Below, piece after piece: positions 4,898 to 19,475 of a stretch of DNA of 64,000 nt (positions are counted from its first letter, which is position 1; every line of letters begins with the position of its first letter). This DNA is from an uncultured Chloroflexia bacterium. GTDB lineage: Bacteria; Chloroflexota; Limnocylindria; Limnocylindrales; CSP1-4. The notes beneath the pieces were generated by a model that worked only from the letters and a program-made list of their open reading frames with translations, made no database searches and was not told the origin of the DNA. The translations under genes were made by a program, and so were the position numbers. The DNA lies in the NCBI GenBank assembly GCA_963713975.1, contig OY970218.1:416001-480000 (forward strand), in the 5' to 3' direction.

Positions 4898-5119
4898 CCG
4901 AGTCAGCCTCGGCCGCGTCGCTCACCACCATCACGGCGACGACGAACGCGTACGGCTGCCACACCCCGCCGCACGGTCTCGGGGCTGATGTGCTCCCAGC
5001 GCTCGTCCACGGGCCGGCCCGCCCGGCCGCTCGCGTGGTCGGCGCCCGTTCGCTCGTTGATGGCGAGCAGCGACCGTCCATGCGCCGCCGATTGACCCGG
5101 TCCACTCGCCAATGGCGAG

Positions 5120-5303
5120 CGAGGCGTCGTTCATGGACCGCGAACAGGCCGCCCAGCGAGCGCCGGGGAGCGCGGCGGCCCGCGCTATCGCCCTACGGCG
5201 GCCCCCAGGTGAACGCGAGGTGGTCCCAGACGAGCAGCGCGTCCCAGCCCGCAGACGTGGCGGACCGCGCAAGGTCGCCACGAGCCGGGCGTCCGCGAAG
5301 CCG
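5120..5303 (-). repeat. 184-bp repeat, copy 1 (inverted copy at 52609..52792)
   Basis: Base-by-base comparison: the reverse complement of 5120..5303 is identical to 52609..52792. Confidence 0.95.
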
Positions 5304-5331
5304 CCGAGGTTCATAGGGACAACCCGGAGCG
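5193..5331 (-). pseudogene. Frameshifted N-terminal remnant of an LLM-class (luciferase-like) flavin-dependent oxidoreductase
   Basis: Joining frames gives RSGLS-L-MNLGGFADARLVA-DLARSATSAGWDALLVWDHLAFTWGPP*, which resembles the LLM N-terminus (A..AGWD...WDH). Two frameshifts plus a TAG stop. Confidence 0.7.
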
Positions 5332-5383
5332 CGTCGGCGCCTCCTTGCGCATGGGCGGGCCCGAGCCCGTAAGTCCTTCCGGC

Positions 5384-6997
5384 TCAGCGCCGGCGCTTCT
5401 TCCGGTCGGCGATCACCTCGCGAGCCGCGTTGCGGCCGGGCGTGGCGGTGACGCCGCCACCCGGGTGCGCGCCGGAGCCCGCGAGGTACAGCCCGTCGAC
5501 CGGCATCCGGTAGCGCGCCCAGCCGAGCAGCGGCCGCCACAGGAAGAACGAGTCGAGGGCCGGCTCGGCATGGAGGGGATGACCACCGGTGAGCCCGTAC
5601 TCGTGCTCGAGGTCCGCGGGTGTGAGCACCTGGCGGGCGGTGACGCGGGAGCCCAGTCCCGGGGCCACCGTCTCCAGCGTCCGGATCGCCAGGTCGCCCA
5701 CCTCGTCGCGTCGGCCGGCCCATGCGTCGGGCGTCAGGCCCGGCGGCATCCACTGCATGAGCACGCTCATGACGTGCGTGCCGTCGGGGGCATCGGCGAC
5801 GAGCGACGGGTCGACGAGGGACGGGATCGTGGCCTCGAGCACCGGCGACGCCGGCAGCAGGCCGTACTTGGAGGCGTCGAACGCCCGCTCCATGTCGTCG
5901 ATGGCGGTCGTGCCCACCTGGATCCGGCCACGCAGCTTCCTGGCGTCGCCGGCGGCGGCCGGGAACTCCGGCAGCCCATCAAGGACCAGGTTGACCTTGG
6001 CGACCGTCCCCGGCGTCCGGATGTTGCCGGCCCGCCAGCGCATCGACGGCCCGACCGTCACCGGATCGACCAGCGACGTCAGCAGCTGCTTGGGATCGAG
6101 GCCCGAGACCACGGCCGGGGCCACGATCTCCTCGCCCGATGCCAGCGCCACGCCGGTGACCGCGCCATCCCGCGTGGTGACGGCGACGACCTTGACCCCG
6201 GTGCGGATCTCCGCGCCGGCGGCGCGGGCAGCGGATGCCAGGGCGTTGGACACGGCGGACGGGCCGCCCTTCGCGTAGACCGTCTCGCCGGCCGCCCCGC
6301 CGTCGTTGCCCGCGGCGTCGGCCAGCAGCACGGCGGTCGTGCCCGCGGACCACGGGCCCATGGCGGTGTAGCGGACGCCCCGCCAAGCGGTGGTTGCCCG
6401 GATTGACTCCGAGCTGAACGACTCCGCCACGAAGTCCGCGGCCGCCATCGCCAGCACGCGCAGGATCGTGCGCCCGTCGTGCCTGCCCAGGCCGCGGAAC
6501 GCGCGACCGAGCCGCAGGCCCAGCAGCGCATCGCCAAAGCCGGGTCCCTTGATGTCGGGCGGGGCCTCGTCGCCGAGGTCTGCGAGGAAGGTCGAGAGCG
6601 AGCGGACGCGCCGGTCGTACTCGACGAACGAGGTGGCGTCGTCGTCCGAGAAGGCGCGCAGCGCCTCGACGCTCTTGGCCAGGTCCGCGTACAGCGTCAC
6701 GGCTCGACCGTCGGCCTGGGGCGCGAAGACGCGGACCTCCGGCGCGACCAGCGCCAGGCCGTGCTGCGCGAGCTCCAGCTCGCGGGCGACCGATGGCCGC
6801 AGGCGGCCGACGGTGTGGGCGAGCGTCGGGACACGGGCACCGCCCAGGTCCTCGGTGACGGCCGCGCCGCCGACGATGCCGCGGGCCTCGAGCACGAGGA
6901 CGCGCAGGCCGGCCCTCGCCATGTAGGCCGCCGAGGTGAGGCCGTTGTGGCCCGCCCCGACGACGATCGCGTCGTAGGTGTTCATCACGTGGGCCAT
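5384..6997 (-). CDS. FAD-dependent oxidoreductase, phytoene-desaturase/PYROXD2-like (second paralog)
   Basis: IVVGAGHNGL FAD motif, GGAAVTE, TPADLEHEYGLTGGH, LYLAGSGAHPGGGV. Confidence 0.88.
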   Translation of the reverse strand: MAHVMNTYDAIVVGAGHNGLTSAAYMARAGLRVLVLEARGIVGGAAVTEDLGGARVPTLAHTVGRLRPSVARELELAQHGLALVAPEVRVFAPQADGRAVTLYADLAKSVEALRAFSDDDATSFVEYDRRVRSLSTFLADLGDEAPPDIKGPGFGDALLGLRLGRAFRGLGRHDGRTILRVLAMAAADFVAESFSSESIRATTAWRGVRYTAMGPWSAGTTAVLLADAAGNDGGAAGETVYAKGGPSAVSNALASAARAAGAEIRTGVKVVAVTTRDGAVTGVALASGEEIVAPAVVSGLDPKQLLTSLVDPVTVGPSMRWRAGNIRTPGTVAKVNLVLDGLPEFPAAAGDARKLRGRIQVGTTAIDDMERAFDASKYGLLPASPVLEATIPSLVDPSLVADAPDGTHVMSVLMQWMPPGLTPDAWAGRRDEVGDLAIRTLETVAPGLGSRVTARQVLTPADLEHEYGLTGGHPLHAEPALDSFFLWRPLLGWARYRMPVDGLYLAGSGAHPGGGVTATPGRNAAREVIADRKKRRR

Positions 6998-6999
6998 GG

Positions 7000-8628
7000 T
7001 CAGGCCACCTTCCGGCCGCGGGACTTGAGGACCTCGAGGGCCGCCAGCCGGCCGTTGGCACCCATCAGGCCACCCCCGGGATGCGTGGACGAGCCCGACA
7101 GCCAGAGGTTCTGGACGGGGGTCCGGAACCTGGCGTAGCCCGGGACCGGGCGGTTGAAGAACAGCTGCTCCAGGGTGAGCTCACCCTGGAAGATGTTCCC
7201 CTCCGTGAGCCCCATCGTGCGCTCGATATCGAGCGGGGTGAGGACCTGGCGGCCGATGATGATGTCCCGGATGTTGGGCGCGAACTCCGCGATCCGGTTG
7301 ATCACCGCGTCGCCGAACGCCTCCCGGTTGCCGTTCTCGTCCCACGTTCCCAGCTCCGGCGCCAGCTTGTACGGCGCGTACTGGACGAAGCAGCTGATGA
7401 CGTGCTTGCCGGGAGGGGCCATCCCGGGATCGACCAGGGTGGGGATGATCATGTCCACGTACGGGCGGTTGCTCCAGTGGCCGTACTTGGCGTCGTCGTA
7501 GGCCTGCTCCATCTCGCGGGTCGAGGGGCTGAAGGAGACGGCGCCACGCAGGTGCTCGCCCTCACCGGGGAGGCAGGTGAAGTCGGGCAGGCGGTCGACC
7601 GCCAGGTTGACCTTGCCCGAGCTGCCGCGGAACTTGAAGCGCCGGATCTCCTGCTCGAACTCGGGCTCCAGGGTGCCCGGCTCCAGCAGGTCCAGGAAGG
7701 TGACCTTGGCATCGGTGGACGCGAGGACGACCGATGCCTCGATCTCCTCGCCCGACTCGAGCGCCACCCCGGTGGCGCGGCCGCCCTTGACGATGATCCG
7801 GGCGACGGGTGCCTCGGTGCGGATCTCGGCGCCCAGCGCCTGCGCGGCGCGGGCGATCGAGTAGGAGACGCCGCCGGTGCCGCCCTTGGGGATGCCCCAG
7901 GCCCGGAACGCGCCGTCGATCTCGCCCATGTAGTGGTGCAGCAGGACGTAGGCGGTGCCGGGGCTCCGGATGCCCTGGTAGGTGCCGATGATGCCGGACG
8001 CGGACATCGTGGCCTTCAGCGGGTCGGTCTCGAACCACTGGTCCAGGAAGTCCTTGGCGGACATCGTCATGAGCTGGACGAAGACCGCCTGCTGGCGCTC
8101 CGGCAGCTGCGCGAAGCGGCGGGCGAGGCTCGCCAGCGGCATCATCGGACGCGGGTCGTTGTCGGTGGGGTCGGCTGGCACGATGCCCAGGATCGGCTTG
8201 ATGAAGCGGGCCATCTCCACCATGAGCTGGCCGTACTCCTCGTACGCCTCGGCGTCGCTCTTGCTCCAGCGGCGAAGCTCGCGGACGGTCCGGCCGTGGT
8301 CGTTGACGCGCCACAGGTAGTCGCCGCCGCCGCCCTTCGGCCCCTCGCCGGGACGGAGCGGGGTGAACGTGCCGTCGAGCGGGAGGATGTCCAGGCCGTG
8401 CTTGGGGAGGTCCAGGTCCCGGATGATCTCCGGCCGCAGCAGGCTGACGACGTAGCTGGCCACGGAGAACCGGAAGCCCGGCACGATCTCCTCGGTGACC
8501 GCGGCACCGCCCAGGACGTGGCGCCGCTCGAGGACCAGCGTCTTGAGCCCGGCGCGCGCCAGGTAGGCGGCGGAGATGAGGCCGTTGTGCCCCCCGCCGA
8601 TGATCACCGCGTCGTAGCGCTGCGCCAC
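7000..8628 (-). CDS. FAD-dependent oxidoreductase, phytoene-desaturase/PYROXD2-like (first paralog)
   Basis: IIGGGHNGL, GGAAVTEEIVPGFRFSVASYVVSLLRP, GTAYVLLHHYMG, TPLDIERTMGLTEGNIFQG, GSSTHPGGG. Confidence 0.92.
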   Translation of the reverse strand: MAQRYDAVIIGGGHNGLISAAYLARAGLKTLVLERRHVLGGAAVTEEIVPGFRFSVASYVVSLLRPEIIRDLDLPKHGLDILPLDGTFTPLRPGEGPKGGGGDYLWRVNDHGRTVRELRRWSKSDAEAYEEYGQLMVEMARFIKPILGIVPADPTDNDPRPMMPLASLARRFAQLPERQQAVFVQLMTMSAKDFLDQWFETDPLKATMSASGIIGTYQGIRSPGTAYVLLHHYMGEIDGAFRAWGIPKGGTGGVSYSIARAAQALGAEIRTEAPVARIIVKGGRATGVALESGEEIEASVVLASTDAKVTFLDLLEPGTLEPEFEQEIRRFKFRGSSGKVNLAVDRLPDFTCLPGEGEHLRGAVSFSPSTREMEQAYDDAKYGHWSNRPYVDMIIPTLVDPGMAPPGKHVISCFVQYAPYKLAPELGTWDENGNREAFGDAVINRIAEFAPNIRDIIIGRQVLTPLDIERTMGLTEGNIFQGELTLEQLFFNRPVPGYARFRTPVQNLWLSGSSTHPGGGLMGANGRLAALEVLKSRGRKVA

Positions 8629-8700
8629 GCCACCCTCCAGTCGGGACGGTGCGACCGGGCTTTGCGCTCCATGCGATGCGCACGGAGCCGATCGCTTATT

Positions 8701-8726
8701 CAGCCTGCATCGTGTTGATGCAGTCT
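8701..8726. promoter_or_regulatory. Palindromic operator CAGCCTGCATC-N5-GATGCAGTCT upstream of the oxidoreductase pair
   Basis: TGCAT-N7-ATGCA dyad overlapping a minus-strand TAGACT -10-like hexamer. The same motif recurs at 12274..12299. Confidence 0.6.
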
Positions 8727-8762
8727 AGCGCGAGACGGCCGGCGCCCCGGAGGCATCGATCC

Positions 8763-11705
8763 CTACCATCCCTCGCCCAGCGCCAGCTCGAGGGCCGTGA
8801 CCACCACGTCCGCGCTCTCCCGGGTCAGGCACAGCGGCGGCTTCACCTTCAGGACGTTGTTGCCGTCGCCCGTGGGCTGGATGACCACGCCAAGCTCCAG
8901 CATCCGCTCGCAGATCGCGAGTGCCTCCTCTGTGGCGGGCTCGAGCGTCCCGGGATCCCGGACGAGCTCCACACCCAGGTAGAGGCCTATGCCGTGCACG
9001 GCGCCAACGATCGGGTGTCGCGCCGCCACGGACTCGAGACCGGCCCTCAGGTGCGCCCCCACGACGCGGGCGTTGTCCTGGAGGCGCTCCCCATCGATCG
9101 TCTCAAGCACCGCGATCCCGGCCGCACACGTCACAGGCGACCCCCCGACGCTGGAGAAGAACGAGCCCTCGGTGGTGAAGGCGTCCGCGATCTCCCTGGT
9201 CGTGATCACGGCGCCAACGGCCATCCCATTCCCGGCCGCCTTGGCGATGCTGACGATGTCGGGGATCACGCCCTGCTGCTCGAACGCCCACCGGTGCTCG
9301 CCCAGGCGGCCGTAGCCCGTCTGCACCTCGTCCGCGATGGCCACGCCCCCGGCCGATCGCACAGCCGCATACGCCTGCACGAGGTAGCCGTCCGGCAGGA
9401 CCACGCCACCCGCGTTGCCGAACAGCGGTTCGGCGATGAACGCGGCCGGTCGGCGGCCCTCGGCGGCCAGGCGGGCGATCGTCGCCCGGACGTCATCCGC
9501 GTACCTGGTGCCGGCGTCCGCGCCGCGATGGGTGCCCCGATAGGTGTTGGGTGCATCCACCAGGTGTACCCATGCGGGCCGGGTTCCCGCGGCATGCGGG
9601 TTGTCGGCGTGCGAGGTGGTGATGGCGTCGGTCGCCCCCGTCCAGCCGTGGTAGGCACCGCGCACGGCGAGAACGTCGGTCGCACCGGTCGCCGTGCGGG
9701 CCAGGCGAAGCGCGAGCTCGTTCGCCTCGCTGCCGGTGTTGACCAGGAAGACGGTGTCGAGCGAGGCGGGGAACCGTGCCGCGAGCGCCTCGGCAAGCTC
9801 GACCATCGCGGCGTAGAGGAACCGGGAGTTGGTGTTGAGCCGGGCGAGCTGGCGGCGGACGGCCGCCTCGACGGCCGGGTGGCTGTGCCCCAGGACGGCG
9901 ATGTTGTTGACGACGTCGACGTATGCGCGGCCCCGGCTGTCCACCAGGTGGTGGCGCCATCCGCGCTCGATGCGGGGCGGGTCCCCGAAGTACTGCACCT
10001 GGACGCCCGCAAGGACGCGCTCGCGACGGGCGAGGAGGTCGGCGGCGTCGTCCGGCGGAGCGACGGCCAGGCCCGGCGGGAGGCCCAGCAGCACCGATGG
10101 ATCCGGGCACAGCGCCAGCCAGGCGCCCGCGAGGGACGCGACCGCGACGCGGGGAGCTTCGAGACCTGGCGCCGCGATGCGCTGGACGTGGACGTGAGGC
10201 GGGAGGCCGTCCGGTCCGTCGGTCGCCACGACGCCGAGAGCATTCCCACAGGAGACCTCGACGCCGTCCTCCGGCGCCGGATCGAGCCCGTCGAGACGGA
10301 GGTCGAAGGCCCCGGCCGCGATGACGACACCGGCTGGCGTTCGTCGCACGGTGCCGCCGATCGGGGCGGCAACGGGGGTCCCGGCCGCGGCGAAGACGTC
10401 GACCCCGAGGTGGATCGTGGCCGGCTCGTCGACGGCGTCGAGGACCGTGTCCACCAGCCGCGCCTCGCCCCAGCGTCCGACCGGCGTCCCGTCCACGGCG
10501 CTCACGATCGCGGCTGCGGCGCCCGGGTCACCCGTCGCGCTGCCCGGCAGGGCGTCGGCCGTGGTCGACAGATCGATGGCCACGGGCTCGCCCGTCCATG
10601 CGAGCAGTGGCGCCGTGGATAGCCTCGTCGACGGGCGCTCGCCCGAACCCATGCCCGCTGCTTCCCGCAGCACCTCGGTGGCGAGATCGAACGGCACGGC
10701 GGCGACCGCCTCGAGTGCCGCCCATTCCTCCTCCCGCGTCTCGTGGACGTACACGTTGTCCCGCTCCAGCGCCGCCTGCTGGTCCCCGCTCACCGCCACG
10801 GCTGCCGACCTGGCGACCACCATCGGCCAGATGGCGGCCAGCTCGACGCCCGTCAGGGGCAGCAGGGGCAGGAAGCCCCGCGCCACGTCGCGCGCCAGCT
10901 GGAGCGGACGCTCGAGGGCATGGGCGGCATCGGCTGCGATCGTCACCGCCAGCTCCGCGGCCAGCCAGGTGCGTGAGAGGTCGCCGAAGTCGATCAGGCC
11001 AACGGGCATCGGCCGGCCGGCCCCGTCGCGGCGGGTCACGGTGTTGAGGTCGGTCACGTCCTGGTGGACCACGCCCGTGCGCAGGTCGGGCCCCAGCCTC
11101 GCCAGCACTGCGCCTGCCTCGTCCATCGACGCCTCCGCGAGCCGGCGGCGAGCTTGGGTGGACGCGTAGGGCAGCAGCGCCTCAACGACGGAGGCCGCAT
11201 GACGCAGGTCCCACTGGAGGTGGCGGTCAAGCCCCGGGTGATCCCACCCGTCGAGCGCCAGGGCGATCCGCGCCGACATCTCCCCGTGGGCCCGGAGCAC
11301 GACCGGTGCGAGGTACCCGGCCCGGTCCATGGGCTCACCGTCGATCCAGGACACGAGCCGGAGGTCATGGGGCTCGCCCGCCGTGGTCTGCGCCCGGGCG
11401 ATCAGCGACCCGTCAACCGCCGGCTGCGGCACCGGCACCTCGAACGGCAGCCCGGCGGACGCCGCCCGGAGCATCGCCGCGTTCTCCGCCTCCAGCTCCC
11501 GGCGGCCAAGGCCCTGGCGTGCCACCTTGAACACGAAGCGGCCGTCCGCCGCGTCCACCAGGTAGTTGCGGTCCTGGTGGCTGCCGAGTTCGCGCCTCAG
11601 GCCATCGCGCCCGAAGTGGCGACGGAGGAGGCGCGCCGCTTCGGCGGCATCGGTGTCCGGCCGGCGGTGCTCGTGGCCGTCGAAGGGGTTGAGGCGTTCC
11701 GTCAT
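8763..11705 (-). CDS. Fusion of APH-like phosphotransferase, M23-like domain and class III aminotransferase (hydroxylysine kinase / phosphohydroxylysine phospho-lyase type)
   Basis: LGSHQDRN, HQDVTDLN and IDFGD (kinase); HLGVD and HVH (M23); NTGSEANELA, IADEVQTGYGR and SIAKAAGNG (PLP class III). Confidence 0.88.
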   Translation of the reverse strand: MTERLNPFDGHEHRRPDTDAAEAARLLRRHFGRDGLRRELGSHQDRNYLVDAADGRFVFKVARQGLGRRELEAENAAMLRAASAGLPFEVPVPQPAVDGSLIARAQTTAGEPHDLRLVSWIDGEPMDRAGYLAPVVLRAHGEMSARIALALDGWDHPGLDRHLQWDLRHAASVVEALLPYASTQARRRLAEASMDEAGAVLARLGPDLRTGVVHQDVTDLNTVTRRDGAGRPMPVGLIDFGDLSRTWLAAELAVTIAADAAHALERPLQLARDVARGFLPLLPLTGVELAAIWPMVVARSAAVAVSGDQQAALERDNVYVHETREEEWAALEAVAAVPFDLATEVLREAAGMGSGERPSTRLSTAPLLAWTGEPVAIDLSTTADALPGSATGDPGAAAAIVSAVDGTPVGRWGEARLVDTVLDAVDEPATIHLGVDVFAAAGTPVAAPIGGTVRRTPAGVVIAAGAFDLRLDGLDPAPEDGVEVSCGNALGVVATDGPDGLPPHVHVQRIAAPGLEAPRVAVASLAGAWLALCPDPSVLLGLPPGLAVAPPDDAADLLARRERVLAGVQVQYFGDPPRIERGWRHHLVDSRGRAYVDVVNNIAVLGHSHPAVEAAVRRQLARLNTNSRFLYAAMVELAEALAARFPASLDTVFLVNTGSEANELALRLARTATGATDVLAVRGAYHGWTGATDAITTSHADNPHAAGTRPAWVHLVDAPNTYRGTHRGADAGTRYADDVRATIARLAAEGRRPAAFIAEPLFGNAGGVVLPDGYLVQAYAAVRSAGGVAIADEVQTGYGRLGEHRWAFEQQGVIPDIVSIAKAAGNGMAVGAVITTREIADAFTTEGSFFSSVGGSPVTCAAGIAVLETIDGERLQDNARVVGAHLRAGLESVAARHPIVGAVHGIGLYLGVELVRDPGTLEPATEEALAICERMLELGVVIQPTGDGNNVLKVKPPLCLTRESADVVVTALELALGEGW

Positions 11706-11781
11706 GGCGCCATCGTGGCAGAGCCGCGGGCCGCGGGTTCGGCTTACCGGCCCGGTGCTCCCTCGTGTACCGTCCCGTCTC

Positions 11782-12222
11782 GTGAGCAACAAGCGGACGC
11801 GACCGGGCGCCAGTGAGCCCACCGGTGCTGGGACCTCGATGGGTGTCCGCCTGCGCTCGGGCACGGGGATGCTGATCGTTGGCGGGACGCTGGCTGCCGT
11901 CGGGGTTCTGCTGCCCTGGTTCGACATGCCTGGAGGCGTGACCACGGCCGGCGTCGAGTCGATGGCCGGAGTTGGCGCGCTCGTGCTCGGACTGGTCGCC
12001 GCCGCCATCGGCGCCTTCCTGCTGCGCCGGCCAGGTCACCCCGCCACCCGCGTGATGGCCTGGGTGGCGCTGATCGCGTCGCTCGGGATCCTGGGTCTCG
12101 CCCTGCTCGCCGTCTCGATCGCCGGCCCCGACGGTGGCACCGGTGCCACGGGGCTGCTGCTCTCGGTCATGGGAGGAGTGGTCGCCACGATGGGCTGCCG
12201 CGGGCTGCTCACGCGCTACTGA
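11782..12222 (+). CDS. Small 4-TM membrane protein
   Basis: Four hydrophobic stretches including LLPWF. GTG lies 8 nt after TACCGT; alternative ATG at 11839. Confidence 0.65.
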   Translation: MSNKRTRPGASEPTGAGTSMGVRLRSGTGMLIVGGTLAAVGVLLPWFDMPGGVTTAGVESMAGVGALVLGLVAAAIGAFLLRRPGHPATRVMAWVALIASLGILGLALLAVSIAGPDGGTGATGLLLSVMGGVVATMGCRGLLTRY

Positions 12223-12273
12223 GTGGCCGGCCGCTCGGGCGATCGGCGCCAGGGCCGGCAAGGGCTCGTGATC

Positions 12274-12299
12274 CAGCCTGCATGCATCTCATGCATACT
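12274..12299. promoter_or_regulatory. Palindromic operator CAGCCTGCATG-N5-CATGCATACT upstream of the GcvT-like gene
   Basis: TGCAT-N7-ATGCA dyad whose first 10 nt are identical to the 8701 site; it overlaps a CATACT -10-like hexamer. Confidence 0.6.
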
Positions 12300-12327
12300 C
12301 ACCGGGGTCACCAGCAGGAGGAGCCTC

Positions 12328-13518
12328 GTGAGCGTCGGCACCGCGTTCCATCCCCGCACTGCCCCCCTCAACAGGAAGATGCAGTGGCGGGAGTGGGCGG
12401 GCTTTTTCGCGTCCTCCGTGTACGCCGACTTCCACGACATCGAGTACAACGCGATCCGTGAAGCCGCCGCAGTCATCGACGTCAGCCCGCTGTACAAGTA
12501 CCGCGTCAGCGGGCCGGACGCGCTCCGCCTGGCCGACCGCGTCATCACGCGGGACGCCACGAAGCTGAAGGTGGGCCAGGTCTTCTACACGCCGTGGTGT
12601 GACGAGCACGGCAAGGTGATCGACGACGGGACCGTCCACCGCACGGGCGAGCAGGAGCTCCGCTGGACCGCCGCCGACCCCCAGTTCCGCTGGCTGACCC
12701 TGAACGCCGCGGGTCTCGACGTCGAGATCGAGGACGTCAGCGAGTCGGTCGGCGCGCTGGCCCTCCAGGGACCGTTCAGCCGGGCCGTGCTGGAGGCGGC
12801 GACGGGCGAGGACTTCGCGGACCTGCGCTACTTCCGGCGGCGTGCGAGCCGGATCGGCAAGGTCGCCATCGACGTCAGCCGCACGGGCTACACGGGTGAT
12901 CTGGGCTACGAGCTGTGGGTGCCTGCCGAGGCCGCGCCCGAGGTCTGGGACGCGCTGTTCGCGGCCGGCAAGGCCTACGCCATCCGCCCGGCGGGGATGC
13001 TGGCGCTGGACGTGGTCCGCCTCGAGGCCGGGCTGATCATGCTGGACGTGGACTACACGTCGGCCCGCCACGCCATGAACCCCGAGCAGAGCTACAGCCC
13101 ATACGAGATCGGGCTGGGCAACCTCGTCTCGTTCGACAAGGGCGACTACGTCGGCCGACGCGCCCTCCAGGCCGAGGTTGCAGCGGGCGGACCGCCGCGT
13201 CGCCTGGTCGGCCTCCAGATGGACTGGTACGACATCGAGGGCCTGTTCGACGCCCAGGGCCTGCCGCCCGGGTTGTCGCCCTATGTGGACCGCTCGCCGG
13301 TTCCCGTGTTCGCCGACGGACGCCAGGTCGGCAGGGCCACCTCGCTCGGCTGGAGCCCGATCCTCAAGCAGGCGCTCGCGCTCGCATTCGTGCCGGCTCG
13401 TCACGAGCGAGTGGGTTCCCGGCTCCAGGTCGAGTGGACCGTGGAGGGTCGCCGAGGGCGCGTGGCGGCCACGGTCGTGGAGCTGCCGTTCCTGGATCTC
13501 GACCGCAAGCGGACCTGA
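12328..13518 (+). CDS. Aminomethyltransferase (GcvT/DmdA-like folate-binding) family protein
   Basis: IDVSPLYK, GKVIDDG, LALQGP, SRTGYTGDLGYELW, RLEAG. AGGAGG SD precedes the GTG. No gcvH or gcvP nearby. Confidence 0.9.
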   Translation: MSVGTAFHPRTAPLNRKMQWREWAGFFASSVYADFHDIEYNAIREAAAVIDVSPLYKYRVSGPDALRLADRVITRDATKLKVGQVFYTPWCDEHGKVIDDGTVHRTGEQELRWTAADPQFRWLTLNAAGLDVEIEDVSESVGALALQGPFSRAVLEAATGEDFADLRYFRRRASRIGKVAIDVSRTGYTGDLGYELWVPAEAAPEVWDALFAAGKAYAIRPAGMLALDVVRLEAGLIMLDVDYTSARHAMNPEQSYSPYEIGLGNLVSFDKGDYVGRRALQAEVAAGGPPRRLVGLQMDWYDIEGLFDAQGLPPGLSPYVDRSPVPVFADGRQVGRATSLGWSPILKQALALAFVPARHERVGSRLQVEWTVEGRRGRVAATVVELPFLDLDRKRT

Positions 13519-14421: not shown

Positions 14422-15552
14422 TCAGGACTCTCTGCCCAGGACGCGGTCGGCGAAGGCCTCCAAGCCCGCGAGCGCGACGGGGAGATCCACCCTGCCGAAG
14501 CCCAGGCGGAAGTGGTTGCCGGCGTGGCCGAAGATCGAGCCGGGGGCGATCAGCACGCCCTCCGCCTCCACCAGGTCCTGGGCGAACCGGTCAACCGGCA
14601 CCGGGCCCCGAAGCTCCGGGAACCCGACCGGGGCACCGCGCGGCCGCACCCACGCGAACTGGTCCGGCCGCCGGAGGAAGAAGTCGTCGAGCAGCGCCAG
14701 GTTCGCGTCCACGATCGAGCGGGAGCGGGCAAGCACGCGGTCCCGGGCGCGCAGGGCGATCAGCGACAGGATCTCGGCCGGCGCAGAGGCACAGATCGTC
14801 GTGTAGTCCTTGAACCGGGCAGCCCGATCCAGCAGCCGTGCGTCGCGCGTCGCCAGCCAGCCGATCCGCAGGCCGGCCAGCGCGAACGATTTGGACATCA
14901 CGCCGACGCTCACGCCGTGCGGCCCCACGTCGGCGCCGGCGGGGAGCCGGTCAGTGCCGTCGTGCTCGAGGAAGCGGTACACCTCGTCGGACAGGAGCGT
15001 GGCGCCCGCATCGGCGGCGATGTCCACAATCTCGAGGTAGGTCGTGGCGTCCGGAACGTGGCCCGTGGGATTGTGGGGAACGTTCACGACGATCAGCCTG
15101 GTGCGTGGCGTGACCTGGGAGCGAAGGAGATCGAGGTCGATGGCCCAGCCGTTTTCGGCGCGGAGCTCGTGGAGTGTCACGTCGGCACCGGTCGCGCGTG
15201 CGACCTCGTGCAGGGACTGGTACGCCGGCCAGGTCACGATCGCGTGGTCTCCCGGGCCGAGGAGGACGTTGGCCGTCACGAAGATGGCCTCCTCCGCCCC
15301 ACTGAAGACCAGCACGTCGTCCGGGGTGATCGATTCGTAGAGCCCGGCGATCTCGCGCCGCAGGAGCGGGTGTCCGGGAGCCTCCGTGTAGCCGAGGCGC
15401 AGGCCGCGCCACAGGTCGGACGTATCGGCATCGGCCAGGGCGAGCAGGTCGGCCATCGGCCAGCCCTCGACGTCCGAGGCGCACAGGAGGTGGCGCACCG
15501 AGAACTCGTAGCGTGCGAAGAACCGCTCGAGCTCGAAGTCCTCGATCCGCAT
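14422..15552 (-). CDS. Class I/II PLP-dependent aminotransferase-fold enzyme
   Basis: NVPHNPTG, SDEVYR and MSKSFALAGLRIGW (PLP lysine). Confidence 0.92.
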   Translation of the reverse strand: MRIEDFELERFFARYEFSVRHLLCASDVEGWPMADLLALADADTSDLWRGLRLGYTEAPGHPLLRREIAGLYESITPDDVLVFSGAEEAIFVTANVLLGPGDHAIVTWPAYQSLHEVARATGADVTLHELRAENGWAIDLDLLRSQVTPRTRLIVVNVPHNPTGHVPDATTYLEIVDIAADAGATLLSDEVYRFLEHDGTDRLPAGADVGPHGVSVGVMSKSFALAGLRIGWLATRDARLLDRAARFKDYTTICASAPAEILSLIALRARDRVLARSRSIVDANLALLDDFFLRRPDQFAWVRPRGAPVGFPELRGPVPVDRFAQDLVEAEGVLIAPGSIFGHAGNHFRLGFGRVDLPVALAGLEAFADRVLGRES

Positions 15553-15563
15553 GGCGGGTGGGA

Positions 15564-16265
15564 CTACCCGGGAACTACCGCGAGGGCCTGCGCGAACGCA
15601 CGCGTGGTCGCCTCGTCGAGCCCGTGGGTCACGAACAGCCAGCTCGGGTTCTCGCCGCGGGCGGCGACGATCGCGTACCCACCGTCGTCGAGGGTCGAGA
15701 TCGTCCCGTCGAGGGGACCCAGGGCCGCCTCCCCGATCTCCGTCCCGGACGGCACGCAGCCGGTTTCGTCGGCGCAGAACGCGCCCTCGGTCAGGGCAAT
15801 CGTGGCGCCGGCCGGACCCTTGTAGCCGATGAGCAGCTTGCCGCCGTTGGCCTGCCGATAGGTGCCCTGGGACACGAACCAGCCCTTCGGCAGGACGCCG
15901 CACAGGACCGGCCAGTCCGTGACGCGCGCGAAGCCCGCGAAGAACTCCTGGTTGCCGGCGTTGCCGCTGCACTCGCCATCGGCGGCCTGGGTCGCAGCGG
16001 CAGACGGCGTCGCGCCCGGGGCCTCCGACTCCACCACGGGCTCGGTCTCCGCCGGGAGCTCCGTCTCGCCGGGCGTGGCGGATTCGACGGGTGGCTCCGA
16101 CTCGGTGGGGGCGCCGGTCGGCTCAGCGGTGGCGCCGGGAGGCTCGGAGGCCCGCGGTGATTCGGTCACGGGTGCCGTGGTGGCCGCGCTCGACGGCGTG
16201 CCGGTGCCGCAGGCGGCGAGGAGCCCGGCGATCACCACGAGGAGCGTGACACGGAGGCGGAGCAC
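15564..16265 (-). CDS. Hypothetical lipoprotein with a P/T/E-rich linker
   Basis: Lipobox LLAAC, low-complexity linker, then a Cys-containing globular C-terminal domain. GTG lies 6 nt after TACCCT. Confidence 0.75.
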   Translation of the reverse strand: MLRLRVTLLVVIAGLLAACGTGTPSSAATTAPVTESPRASEPPGATAEPTGAPTESEPPVESATPGETELPAETEPVVESEAPGATPSAAATQAADGECSGNAGNQEFFAGFARVTDWPVLCGVLPKGWFVSQGTYRQANGGKLLIGYKGPAGATIALTEGAFCADETGCVPSGTEIGEAALGPLDGTISTLDDGGYAIVAARGENPSWLFVTHGLDEATTRAFAQALAVVPG

Positions 16266-16328: not shown

Positions 16329-17096
16329 TCAGTCACCGCTCACCCCGGCAGCCAGGCGCACGAGGGCCGGCTCCACCCCGAAGACCTCCCGGATGACCTC
16401 GTCGGTGAGGACCTCGGCCGGCGGACCGTCCGCGAGGATGCGGCCGTGCGCGATGATCACGAGCCTCGGGAAGAAGTGGGCGGCCAGGCCGAGGTCGTGG
16501 AGTACGGCGACCAGCGTGGTGCCGTCGCGCTCATTGAGATCGCGCAGGAGCTCCATGGCCTCCACCTGGTGACGCAGGTCGAGGTGCACGGTCGGTTCGT
16601 CCAGGAGCAGGATCGGCGCCTCCTGGGCCACGGCGAGCGCCAGGAGCACCAGCTGGCGCTCCCCGAGCGACAGCTCCCGGGCGTCGCGGCCCATCAGGTG
16701 GCCCAGGCCGACGCGCTCGATCGCGGCCGCCACGGCCGCGCGATCCCCCGGCGTGGCGCCACGAAGCGTCGCCTCGTGTGGGAGGCGACCGAGACCGACG
16801 ACCTCCTCCACGCGCATGGCGAACGGGAACGCGGTCTGCTGGGGCACCACGGCGAGGCGCCGGGCGATCTCGGAGCGCTCGAGGGTCCCCAGCGGCACGC
16901 CGTCCAGTTGGACCCGGCCGACGGACGGCTTGAGGGTGCCTGCGAGCACCCGCAGCAGCGTGGACTTGCCCGCCCCGTTGGGACCGATGAGCGCGACCCG
17001 CTCGCCGTGCTCCAGGGTCAGGGTGACATCGCCCAGGATGGCGCGGCCGCGGACCTCGACCGTCACGCCGTCCATCGCCAGCGCGGGCGAGGTCAC
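16329..17096 (-). CDS. btuD: Cobalamin/Fe-siderophore ABC transporter ATP-binding protein (BtuD-like)
   Basis: GPNGAGKS, LSLGERQ, LLLDEP and VLHD motifs; last gene of the riboswitch-led operon. Confidence 0.85.
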   Translation of the reverse strand: MTSPALAMDGVTVEVRGRAILGDVTLTLEHGERVALIGPNGAGKSTLLRVLAGTLKPSVGRVQLDGVPLGTLERSEIARRLAVVPQQTAFPFAMRVEEVVGLGRLPHEATLRGATPGDRAAVAAAIERVGLGHLMGRDARELSLGERQLVLLALAVAQEAPILLLDEPTVHLDLRHQVEAMELLRDLNERDGTTLVAVLHDLGLAAHFFPRLVIIAHGRILADGPPAEVLTDEVIREVFGVEPALVRLAAGVSGD

Positions 17097-18175
17097 AGCT
17101 CGTACCCCGTGCGGGCGCGCCGCAGCAGCACCAGGAAGAACGGGGCGCCGATGACGGCCGTGACCACGCCGACCGGCACGCCGCCGAGCATCCGGGCGAC
17201 CACGTCGGCCGCGGCCAGGAGGCTCGCCCCGAACAGCGCGGAGATCGGGAGCACGAGACGCGCGTTGGGCCCCACGATCAGCCGCACCAGGTGGGGGATC
17301 ACCAGGCCGACGAACCCGATCAGGCCCGCGACGGCGACGCCCGCCGCCGTCACGAGCGATGCCAGGGCCAGCAGGATGACCCGCTCCCGGCGCACGTCGA
17401 TGCCAAGGTGGGCGGCAGCCTCCTCACCCAGCAGGAAGCCGTTGAGGACCCGCGCCCGGTAGAGGATGGCCAGCGTGCCCCCGATGATCAGGGGCGCCGC
17501 CACCGCGAAGCGGAGCCACGACGAGCCGTCGAAGCCGCCCAGCAGGTAGCTGAAGATCTGGCGCAGCCCCGTTCCGGACAGGTACATCGCCATCGCGAGT
17601 CCCGCGGCCAGGAGGGAGCCCACGGCGTACCCGGTCAGCAGCAGCGAGGTCATGGGCGACAGCGCGCTCGTCCGGGCGAGCTTGTAGACCACGGTCACGG
17701 AGATGAGCGCACCCGCGAAGGCCAGCCCGTGGAGGAGGCCGAACTCCAGGAACACGCCGCGCACCGGCAGGATGACCGCGATGGCGGCTCCCAGCGCGGC
17801 TCCGGAGGCCGTGCCCAGCACGTACGGGTCGGCGAGGGGGTTTCGCAGCAGGCCCTGGAACGTGGCGCCGGCGACGGCCAGGCCCGTGCCGACCACCATC
17901 GCGGTGAGCACGCGCGGCAGCCGCAGGTCCACCACGATCGCCTCGGCGGTGGCGGCCCAGTCGAGCCCCAGGTCCAGGCCAAGGAACCGCCTGACCAGAA
18001 TGGCGATCGTCGTCGTGGGCGCCAGGTCCGCCGACCCGAGCACGATCCCGCCGATGAGCACCACGAACATGGAGACAACCCCCGCCACCGCCAGCCAGCC
18101 CGCGCGTCCGAGGCGCGTGGGAACCAGCAGCGCCGTGCGGCGCCGGGCTTCAGCGGAAGCGGGGGTGGTCGACAT
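17093..18175 (-). CDS. btuC: FecCD-family permease (BtuC-like)
   Basis: LRLPRVL, RNPLADPYVLG, GEEAAAHLGID, IGFVGLVIPHLVR. Confidence 0.88.
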   Translation of the reverse strand: MSTTPASAEARRRTALLVPTRLGRAGWLAVAGVVSMFVVLIGGIVLGSADLAPTTTIAILVRRFLGLDLGLDWAATAEAIVVDLRLPRVLTAMVVGTGLAVAGATFQGLLRNPLADPYVLGTASGAALGAAIAVILPVRGVFLEFGLLHGLAFAGALISVTVVYKLARTSALSPMTSLLLTGYAVGSLLAAGLAMAMYLSGTGLRQIFSYLLGGFDGSSWLRFAVAAPLIIGGTLAILYRARVLNGFLLGEEAAAHLGIDVRRERVILLALASLVTAAGVAVAGLIGFVGLVIPHLVRLIVGPNARLVLPISALFGASLLAAADVVARMLGGVPVGVVTAVIGAPFFLVLLRRARTGYEL

Positions 18176-18178
18176 CGA

Positions 18179-19219
18179 CTACTGGGTCGTGACCGGGAGG
18201 ACGAGGTCCGGGTGGATCGCCTGGGCGAGGGCCCGGATGCCGTCAGCGAGCCGGGGGCCGGGGCGCGTGACGATCACGTCGTCGATCGGGCGGACGTCAC
18301 CGTTCTTTACCGCGCTCAGCGTCTCCCAGCCGGATCGGGCCGCAACCTGGTCGGGGGTGACGCCGTACGCCGCATCGCCGAGGAGGATCACCTCGGGGTC
18401 GAACGACAGGATCTTCTCGGAGTCGATCTGGTAGACGCCGTCCGTGCCGCTGGTCAGCGGATCACCGCCGGCGACGCGGATCATCTCGGTCCCGAAGTAG
18501 TCGGGCGCCGGACCGAAGTAGCCGCTCGAGGCGTCGAGCTCGTAGAAGACACGCGCGGTGGGCTGGTCCGCAACCGCGGTGGCGACGTCGGCGAACGCCG
18601 CCTCGATGTCGTTGGTGATCGCACCCGCCTCCGTCTCGCGGCCGACCGCGCGGCCGATGAGCCCGATGTCGTCCAGGGCCGTCGAGATGTCCGGGGCGAA
18701 GACCACCAGCACGGGAACGCCGAGCGAGCGCAGCTTCGCGATCGCGTCCGGCGGGTTGAAGTTGTCGCCGCCGGCGATCACGAGGTCAGTGCCCAGGGAC
18801 ACGATCTTCTCGACGTCCACGGAGCCGTACTTCGCCACGTCCGGCACCGCCGCGGCCTCGGGCGGATAGACGCTGAAGTCCTCGACCTTGCCGACCAGGC
18901 GGTCTCCCACGCCCAATGCGAACAGCGTCTCGGTGGCCGCTGGCGTGAGCGAGACGATCTTCATCGGCTCCGCCGGGATCAGGGCCGTGCCGCCCTCGTC
19001 ATCGGCGAGCTCGACCGGGAACGCCGGGGTCTCGGTGGGGGCGGCGGTGGCGACTGCGGCGGGCGACGGGGATGACACAGCGGGTGTCGCAGCGGCGGGC
19101 GTCGCTGGCGCAGGTGTGGCGGCGGGTGTCGCCGAGCAGGCGCCGAGCGCGACGGCCAGCAGGAGGCCGGACAGGACAGCGATCAGGCCGGTGGTTCGGC
19201 CCGTACGACGGGTCGACAT
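18179..19219 (-). CDS. btuF: Cobalamin-binding lipoprotein (BtuF-like)
   Basis: Lipobox LGAC; KIVSLTPAATETLFALG, EKIVSL and RPGPRLADG; lies downstream of the cobalamin riboswitch. Confidence 0.88.
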   Translation of the reverse strand: MSTRRTGRTTGLIAVLSGLLLAVALGACSATPAATPAPATPAAATPAVSSPSPAAVATAAPTETPAFPVELADDEGGTALIPAEPMKIVSLTPAATETLFALGVGDRLVGKVEDFSVYPPEAAAVPDVAKYGSVDVEKIVSLGTDLVIAGGDNFNPPDAIAKLRSLGVPVLVVFAPDISTALDDIGLIGRAVGRETEAGAITNDIEAAFADVATAVADQPTARVFYELDASSGYFGPAPDYFGTEMIRVAGGDPLTSGTDGVYQIDSEKILSFDPEVILLGDAAYGVTPDQVAARSGWETLSAVKNGDVRPIDDVIVTRPGPRLADGIRALAQAIHPDLVLPVTTQ

Positions 19220-19270
19220 GCGATTGAGGCTTGGGCGTGCGTCCACGGGAACTCCGACAACGGGTTGGAA

Positions 19271-19312
19271 GGAAACAGAAGACCCCTCGCTTCGGGGGAC
19301 GAAGCAGGGGTC
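19271..19312 (-). terminator. Intrinsic terminator/attenuator in the btuF leader
   Basis: Minus strand reads GACCCCT-GCTTCG-tcccc-CGAAGC-g-AGGGGTC followed by TTCTGTTTCC. Confidence 0.75.
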
Positions 19313-19365
19313 AGGCGGTGGATCGCACGGGTTACGCCTGACCTTTCTCTCGAAGGCTCGAGCGG

Positions 19366-19475
19366 CGACGGCAGGTCGGCGACCGGACTTCCGCCCCATC
19401 GGGGCGGTCACCGTAGCGGGACTGTGCCGGAGTCACACCGGCTTCGCGACCAAACCGCGTCGGTTCTGCAGGGAC
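19366..19475 (-). ncRNA. Cobalamin (B12) riboswitch, compact form
   Basis: Minus strand reads GCGAAGCCGGTGTGACTCCGGCACAGTCCCGCTACGGTGA...AAGTCCGGTCGCCGACCTGCC, matching the B12-element core. It precedes btuFCD; a TG-n-TACGCT extended -10 lies at 19502..19510. Confidence 0.88.

Follow-up and report, generated by a model that had tools for sequence, protein, structure and literature searches.

Two tandem PYROXD2-related flavoproteins and a stand-alone GcvT-like protein form a conserved candidate for a split, folate-coupled N-demethylase

The window analysed here is a 64,000-nucleotide stretch of DNA from an uncultured Chloroflexia bacterium of the order Limnocylindrales (contig OY970218.1, positions 416,001 to 480,000; G000:C1:416001-480000 in the present dataset), lying within a 3,624,741-base genome of 71% G+C that is 92% complete. 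It contains two tandem flavoprotein genes, designated A and B, and a divergent gene for a stand-alone GcvT-like protein, and this trio forms a conserved, co-regulated unit whose products are probably physically associated, as judged from a predicted complex. The reading favoured here, with a probability of roughly 55%, is that the core trio constitutes a split, three-protein, folate-coupled oxidative N-demethylase of the PYROXD2 family. The features of the locus, in window coordinates, are as follows.

5384-6997, minus strand: flavoprotein B, 537 aa, with a PF01593 Amino_oxidase match
7000-8628, minus strand: flavoprotein A, PYROXD2-type by sequence, 542 aa, with a PF01593 Amino_oxidase match of 56 bits
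8706-8722: predicted operator copy 1, TGCATCGTGTTGATGCA, 77 nt ahead of the start codon of A
8763-11705, minus strand: fusion of an APH-type kinase and a class-III pyridoxal phosphate (PLP) domain, an accessory gene, 980 aa, above the NF004800 cut-off
11839-12222, plus strand: small hydrophobic open reading frame (ORF), predicted membrane protein, about 127 aa
12279-12295: predicted operator copy 2, TGCATGCATCTCATGCA, 32 nt ahead of the GTG start of the GcvT-like gene
12328-13518, plus strand: stand-alone GcvT-like protein, predicted to bind folate, 396 aa, with GCV_T and GCV_T_C domains

A and B lie on the same strand, separated by 2 nt, and the GcvT-like gene is divergent from them. An initial annotation of this DNA had proposed a catabolic system for N-methylated or hydroxylated lysine and amines, and the features from which it was drawn (the tandem pair, the distinguishing motifs of the two paralogues, the stand-alone GcvT-family gene, the shared operator and the fusion gene in between) are all present, with two start positions corrected.

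A match to A is present in 38 of 41 related genomes. The wider linkage set comprises the best 80 of at least 592 matches to A, obtained by a pattern scan with one genome per species; its loci come from Chloroflexota, Actinomycetota, Acidobacteriota and one metagenome-assembled genome (MAG) labelled as Chlamydiota, and their A orthologues are 66-94% identical, a range that spans three phyla. A tandem paralogue lies directly downstream of A in all 78 evaluable loci, and of the 72 loci that could be evaluated for a GcvT-like gene, 67 have one upstream of A, within 500 bp in 44 and within 2 kb in 58, with 63 genes divergent from A and four co-directional. Conservation of other neighbours was determined by tblastn of the ORFs from five reference loci against the 80 loci; none of them is widely conserved, the next most frequent neighbour occurring in 25 of the 80 and the rest in no more than eight. 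The streamlined sister genus, with genomes of 1.0-1.4 Mb, places the GcvT-like gene directly divergent from A-B in six of six loci, without the fusion gene in between. A lack of conserved linkage between the flavoproteins and the GcvT-like gene, which the initial annotation had named as grounds for refutation, was not what these loci showed.

An association of the same type is found a second time in this genome. The second module (L121:7695-11255, the same as G000:C1:286694-290254) consists of a LiaF-like small membrane protein, GcvT2 (400 aa), and flavoprotein C (541 aa), which lies 14 bp downstream of GcvT2 and is 48% identical to A, and all 12 relatives examined retain the GcvT2-C module. 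A further arrangement was observed in a MAG labelled as Gaiellaceae, in which two tandem GcvT-like genes lie upstream of the flavoprotein pair (L066:7420-9919).

Physical coupling of the two protein types is suggested by fused forms and by a complex model. The 957 aa protein P0130 joins a GCV_T domain (residues 16-267) to an Amino_oxidase domain (residues 441-946) and is of the second-module type, being 48% identical to GcvT2; two further GcvT-flavoprotein fusions are less clear. Proteins P0124 to P0128, of 1037-1064 aa, each contain two flavoprotein units in the manner of an A-B fusion. P0130, P0140, P0144, P0124, P0125, P0126 and P0127 are single-member sequences, and P0128 has five members, on one contig. 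An interface between A and the GcvT-like protein, the lack of which would have spoken against an oxidase paired with a folate protein, is predicted with an ipSAE score of 0.74 (0.72-0.76 between runs), compared with 0.00 for the best of three controls. Of 157 solved complexes, 116 attain this mark, as do 2 of 215 mismatched pairs. Each partner in the model has a predicted local distance difference test (pLDDT) score of 92 or more, and the runs have no less than 85% of their contacts in common. By a hand check, about 16 of the 31 predicted interface residues of A are conserved, compared with about 42% of residues overall, which gives no clear enrichment. The model supports, rather than shows, binding of A to the GcvT-like protein.

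The two transcription units are also connected by a shared sequence element. The palindrome TGCAT-N7-ATGCA occurs twice in the 3,624,741 bases of the genome, at 8706-8722 and 12279-12295, once before each unit, and by our estimate from base composition about 0.5 occurrences are expected genome-wide. Its presence in relatives was counted within 260 nt upstream of A or of the GcvT-like gene. Among 34 close Limnocylindria-type loci, it precedes A in 22 and the GcvT-like gene in 16 of 30 that could be evaluated, and it occurs elsewhere twice in 610,709 bases. The six loci of the streamlined sister genus have no copy before A (0 of 6), before the GcvT-like gene (0 of 6) or elsewhere in 101,144 bases, and the 60 loci of more distant groups have none before A (0 of 59 evaluable) or the GcvT-like gene (0 of 51), with 11 occurrences elsewhere in 1,068,175 bases. 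Among relatives that carry the element, the half-sites are kept and the spacer is variable, and in one relative (L048) the units lie back to back with a single site for both. From this pattern TGCAT-N7-ATGCA is predicted to be a lineage-specific operator, and because the same element stands before both transcription units, one regulator would probably control both. No transcription-factor gene adjoins the trio in this window, and one TetR and one Crp-like gene were found between the units, in only two relatives. In the streamlined genus, the divergent spacer of about 90 bp between the GcvT-like gene and A (L021-L026) carries a different conserved and partly palindromic element, TAGGCGGTACC to GCATCCTA, and TGCAT-N7-ATGCA was not found in this spacer.

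Flavoprotein A is assigned to the PYROXD2 type from its sequence, in line with the PYROXD2-like identity first proposed for it. It aligns over 96% of its length with a bird protein named PYROXD2 in its source record (P0134), at 39% identity (E 4e-122). A possesses the N-terminal FAD-binding motif GGGHNGL, the segment SPGTAYVLLHHYMGEIDG (GTAYVLLHH) and the motif LLHHYMGEIDG. The LLHH motif, noticed in the alignments of this study and not a published family definition, is common to A (GTAYVLLHHYMGEIDG) and bird PYROXD2 (GSGYVLLHHVMGELEG), where it follows an SPG(T/S) turn. B carries SAGTTAVLLADAAGNDGG (GTTAVLLAD), with LLAD in place of LLHH, and is only 30% identical to bird PYROXD2 (207 bits), but it retains the FAD motifs G-GHNGL near the N-terminus and HPG-G near the C-terminus. 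Flavoprotein C of the second module is 36% identical to bird PYROXD2 and has LLYH at the motif position. A appears far more constrained than B, with 247 alignment columns that are at least 90% conserved compared with 112 in B, 71 of which are common to both. The proteins named PYROXD2 at source among the longer relatives come from bird, oomycete, Perkinsus, sundew and coral, and the atlas neighbours of A carry automatic PYROXD2-like names, which are taken as a lead only. We know of no GcvT-type partner or second paralogue for PYROXD2 in animals. A literature search, made mostly without subscription journals, found no reaction for PYROXD2 and no link between phytoene-dehydrogenase-like proteins and GcvT-type demethylases. 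Variants of human PYROXD2 associate with the levels of N2-acetyl,N6,N6-dimethyllysine and trimethylamine in a 2026 genome-wide association study (PMC13352909), which gives no reaction for the protein.

The GcvT-like protein matches GCV_T at 200.6 bits (cut-off 25.6) and GCV_T_C at 54.4 bits (cut-off 25.9). Its most likely start is the GTG at 12328, 6 nt past an AGGAGG sequence, and not position 12223, from which the longer ORF would contain operator copy 2. Five GCV_T genes were found in the genome by Pfam search, and the canonical gcvT-gcvH-gcvP cluster is located at G000:C1:3313754-3317848, about 2.9 Mb from the stand-alone copy. The latter falls below the threshold of the T-protein equivalog model TIGR00528 (151.2 bits compared with 235.85), and gcvH and gcvP adjoin another GcvT copy. 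Its best match among solved structures is the folate domain of trimethylamine N-oxide demethylase, Tdm (9Q5A, 4.5e-53), followed by T-proteins (2e-43) and dimethylglycine oxidase (9e-30), and enzymes of the methyl-transfer type rank lower (DmdA, 3TFH, 1.2e-22; LigM, 5X1I, 7e-17). This order of relatedness favours, without proving, the capture of formaldehyde or an iminium over direct methyl transfer.

Three known systems offer points of comparison. Tdm (9Q5A, 9Q59) provides the nearest solved relative of the GcvT-like protein in its C-terminal folate domain, but possesses an N-terminal catalytic domain of its own instead of the flavoprotein partner of the trio; the Tdm model NF053776 is matched at 286.8 bits, far below its cut-off of 1100, and only over positions 385-760 of 763. 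Tdm is reported to channel the formaldehyde that arises from an N-methyl compound (PMC13619132). In dimethylglycine oxidase, dimethylglycine dehydrogenase and sarcosine dehydrogenase (1PJ5, 4PAA, 5L46), a flavin-dependent unit oxidises the amine and a folate unit of the GcvT type traps the released one-carbon unit, and their folate domains match the GcvT-like protein at 9e-30 to 3e-27. These enzymes, however, carry a flavin domain of the DAO family and the folate domain on a single fused chain, whereas the trio has a flavoprotein of the CrtI/PYROXD2 family, two paralogues and a separate folate polypeptide; the likeness would be one of working principle and not of family membership. Heterotetrameric sarcosine oxidase, SoxABDG (2GAG, 1VRQ), is likewise a multi-subunit folate-linked N-demethylase, with a GcvT-like domain in its alpha subunit that is matched at 1e-22, but it has a flavoprotein of another family and a different set of subunits, and counterparts of SoxD and SoxG are not conserved with the trio.

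What the data show is the conserved linkage, a signal of shared regulation, the kinship with PYROXD2, a complex model in favour of binding and the lack of a carotenoid pathway, whereas the chemistry of the trio, the role of B, the substrate and the electron acceptor are inferred. Acting on a secondary or tertiary amine, A would oxidise an N-methyl group, yielding the equivalent of an iminium or of formaldehyde, and the GcvT-like protein bound to A would capture the one-carbon unit on tetrahydrofolate (THF), giving 5,10-methylene-THF. B would be a partner subunit, either carrying out a second demethylation or serving in structure or electron transfer.

A different division of labour would make the GcvT-like protein a THF methyltransferase of the DmdA or LigM type, which transfers an S-, O- or N-methyl group to form 5-methyl-THF, with the flavoproteins oxidising either 5-methyl-THF to 5,10-methylene-THF or the demethylated product. 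5-Methyl-THF is itself an N-methyl tertiary amine. The matches to DmdA and LigM are to stand-alone GcvT-family demethylases, a tight complex of A with the GcvT-like protein, as modelled, would suit the hand-over of folate, and THF-dependent demethylases are reported to need a partner that oxidises methyl-THF (PMC11868366). The GcvT-like protein is nevertheless much nearer to Tdm, the T-proteins and dimethylglycine oxidase than to either methyltransferase. No flavoprotein of the family of A and B is known to act on folates. This division of labour is considered distinctly improbable.

Several observations weigh against the trio being an N-demethylase. The 80 loci include many close kin, so that the linkage counts are not independent, and a GcvT-like gene was not found in five of the 72 evaluable loci (L053, L083, L085, L095 and L105). 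A housekeeping role, as opposed to the catabolism of a nutrient, would likewise account for the retention of the genes in genomes of 1.0-1.4 Mb and for the 66-70% identity that A keeps between phyla. When the ORFs of the five reference loci were compared with the 80 loci, neither a substrate-specific transporter nor a pathway gene that would name a substrate proved to be conserved with the trio, and the lysine-type substrate of the initial annotation is a guess. The fused proteins, being singletons, could be artefacts of gene calling or assembly. The complex model was built from an alignment of our own with 29 rows per protein, unpaired, and its score may partly reflect memory of solved enzymes that combine flavin and GcvT domains. 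Finally, in a fold search with the model that AlphaFold gives for A (mean pLDDT 84.6), the carotenoid desaturases 4REP (TM-score normalised to query length 0.72) and 4DGK, along with an archaeal oxidoreductase, come out on top, closely followed by nicotine, monoamine and putrescine oxidases. As all of these are 14-18% identical to A, the fold cannot decide between C-C and C-N chemistry.

The structural ranking is in keeping with A and B being CrtI-, CrtO- or RetSat-like enzymes that act on C-C bonds of a lipid or polyene, in which case the GcvT-like neighbour would be mechanistically meaningless. The fold and FAD-binding architecture of CrtI, CrtD and CrtO are those of A and B, and the CrtO ketolase model (NF045689) is the best NCBIfam match of both proteins, aligned end to end. 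The scores, however, are 288.7 bits for A and 213.3 bits for B against a cut-off of 1000, the CrtI-family model TIGR02734 (crtI_fam) gives 109.7 and 95.8 bits against a cut-off of 238.1, and the sequence identity is 17%. A genome-wide search with TIGR02734 returned 18 matches, none of them above the cut-off, and a search of the 92%-complete genome for phytoene/squalene synthase (PF00494) found none. With neither a phytoene synthase nor a CrtI-family hit that passes the threshold, a carotenoid role for A and B is unlikely. The linkage to GcvT-type genes, which is kept over three phyla and duplicated in the same genome, and the modelled binding of A to the GcvT-like protein also speak against C-C chemistry with an irrelevant neighbour, which is regarded as highly improbable.

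The gene that separates the two operator-controlled units in this window is, by contrast with the trio, an accessory. The start of the kinase/PLP fusion is most likely at 11705 (MTERLNPF) and not at 12008, given that residue 110 of the long ORF is the first that NF004800 matches and that third-position G+C drops upstream of 11705. NF004800, which describes the PRK06149 kinase/aminotransferase fusion, is matched at 1159.9 bits over residues 110-1081 of the long ORF, above its cut-off of 973. The kinase half is placed only in the general APH family (E 2.7e-20), and no solved structure matches its first 540 residues at E values up to 0.01. The best solved matches of the PLP domain are human ETNPPL (6TOR, 7e-102) and the bacterial phosphoethanolamine phospho-lyase A1RDF1 (5G4I, 1.7e-86), and the next class-III enzymes, transaminases, match at 2e-54 or weaker, placing the domain nearer to phospho-lyases than to transaminases by sequence. 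The 5-hydroxylysine route initially assigned to the fusion is not supported; the nearest solved relatives of the PLP domain are phosphoethanolamine phospho-lyases. The joining of an APH-type kinase domain to a class-III PLP domain of the phospho-lyase type recalls hydroxylysine kinase (HYKK) with 5-phosphohydroxylysine phospho-lyase (PHYKPL), and ETNPPL or A1RDF1, but here a single polypeptide of 980 aa, with an additional region in the middle, would hold both activities; bacterial kinase/lyase fusions of this kind were reportedly noted when the human enzymes were identified in 2012. Within the middle region, a weak Peptidase_M23 match below the cut-off was observed at 10330-10420 (residues 431-457, E 0.0028).

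The fusion gene is patchily distributed. Across the 25 genomes of the genus, it is present as a single full-length piece in ten, always at the trio locus, truncated in one (G020) and divided into two to four pieces in six (G006, G007, G012, G013, G017 and G023, the last across contig ends), and eight genomes have only paralogues of no more than 42% identity. None of the 16 genomes of the sister genus has a paralogue of more than 36% identity, and three of the 80 wider loci carry the fusion. In G006, G007, G012, G013 and G017, the pieces are adjacent and the flanking trio is intact, an arrangement that reflects either decay or frameshift errors of assembly. Relatives without the fusion carry other genes in the slot between the units: a PLP decarboxylase (three loci), an M20 peptidase (one), pieces of a class-III aminotransferase (two), a methyltransferase, the TetR or Crp-like regulators, toxin-antitoxin pairs and IS110 transposases. 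The group-II PLP decarboxylases and the M20 peptidase are at L055:8394-9842, L046:7225-8667, L050:7426-9177 and L052:2167-3597. The decarboxylase, peptidase and aminotransferase genes are amine or amino-acid enzymes by sequence and were counted in favour of the N-demethylase reading. With its patchy presence in the genus, its absence from the sister genus, its rarity among the wider loci and the other genes that take its place, the fusion is an accessory gene in a variable slot outside the conserved core, and the initial proposal that it forms part of the system is not supported. As a lineage-specific addition, it would phosphorylate an amino alcohol of the ethanolamine or hydroxylysine type, followed by PLP-dependent elimination.

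Within the genus, the whole 8 kb could still form one pathway, in which the trio demethylates an N-methylated amino alcohol, such as an N-methylethanolamine or a methylated hydroxylysine, and the fusion phosphorylates the product and eliminates phosphate and ammonia. In every genome that carries it, the fusion sits between the operator-controlled units on the strand of A-B, the nearest solved relatives of its PLP domain act on phosphoethanolamine, and a consensus scan of 8500-12500, itself uninformative, found no sigma-70-like site and no terminator-like site between the fusion and A. No copy of the operator precedes the fusion, however, and of the 25 genomes of the genus it was not found in eight and is truncated or in pieces in seven. 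The presence of unrelated genes, such as toxin-antitoxin pairs and IS110 elements, in the same slot elsewhere suggests a permissive insertion site, and a single pathway is judged rather unlikely.

The surroundings of the locus contain further features. The ABC genes at 16329-19300 (minus strand) constitute a Peripla_BP_2/FecCD/ATPase operon that adjoins the GcvT-like gene across Limnocylindria, including the streamlined sister genus. They are preceded by an adenosylcobalamin (AdoCbl) riboswitch at 19332-19470 (minus strand; 53.8 bits, gathering score 50), which identifies the transporter as a cobalamin-type, BtuFCD-like importer and rules it out as the importer of the substrate of the trio. 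A class I/II PLP enzyme at 14422-15600 (minus strand) lies between this transporter and the trio region in many relatives, and its best models, PRK07324, GntC cyclodehydratase and capreomycidine synthase, are all below their cut-offs. The small hydrophobic ORF at 11839-12222 (plus strand) has a third-codon-position G+C of 0.87, belongs to no Pfam family and is matched in one of 20 related loci. Rfam gave no matches in 5384-13518 or in the gene-poor interval 4898-5383; this interval, about 490 bases between SurE and B, contains no ORF with coding-type codon-position G+C, and its length varies among relatives.

PYROXD2 is a human mitochondrial flavoprotein that is genetically tied to the levels of methylated amines and to a severe infantile disorder, and a bacterial counterpart that is locked to a folate-dependent one-carbon catcher across phyla makes the question of its reaction directly testable. 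The pairing of A with the GcvT-like protein may represent the ancestral mode of the PYROXD2 family, in which amines of the dimethyllysine, dimethylamine or trimethylamine type are demethylated while the flavoprotein is docked to a GcvT-fold protein, a tentative proposal to which we assign somewhat less than even odds. If it is true, human PYROXD2 would be an N-demethylase and may also use a mitochondrial partner of the GcvT family, and the diverged B would point to a heteromeric type of amine-oxidising flavoenzyme not known before. For microbial ecology, the trio would offer a widespread, hitherto unrecognised way for methylated nitrogen compounds to enter the folate pool, one that is kept even in streamlined genomes of 1.0-1.4 Mb.

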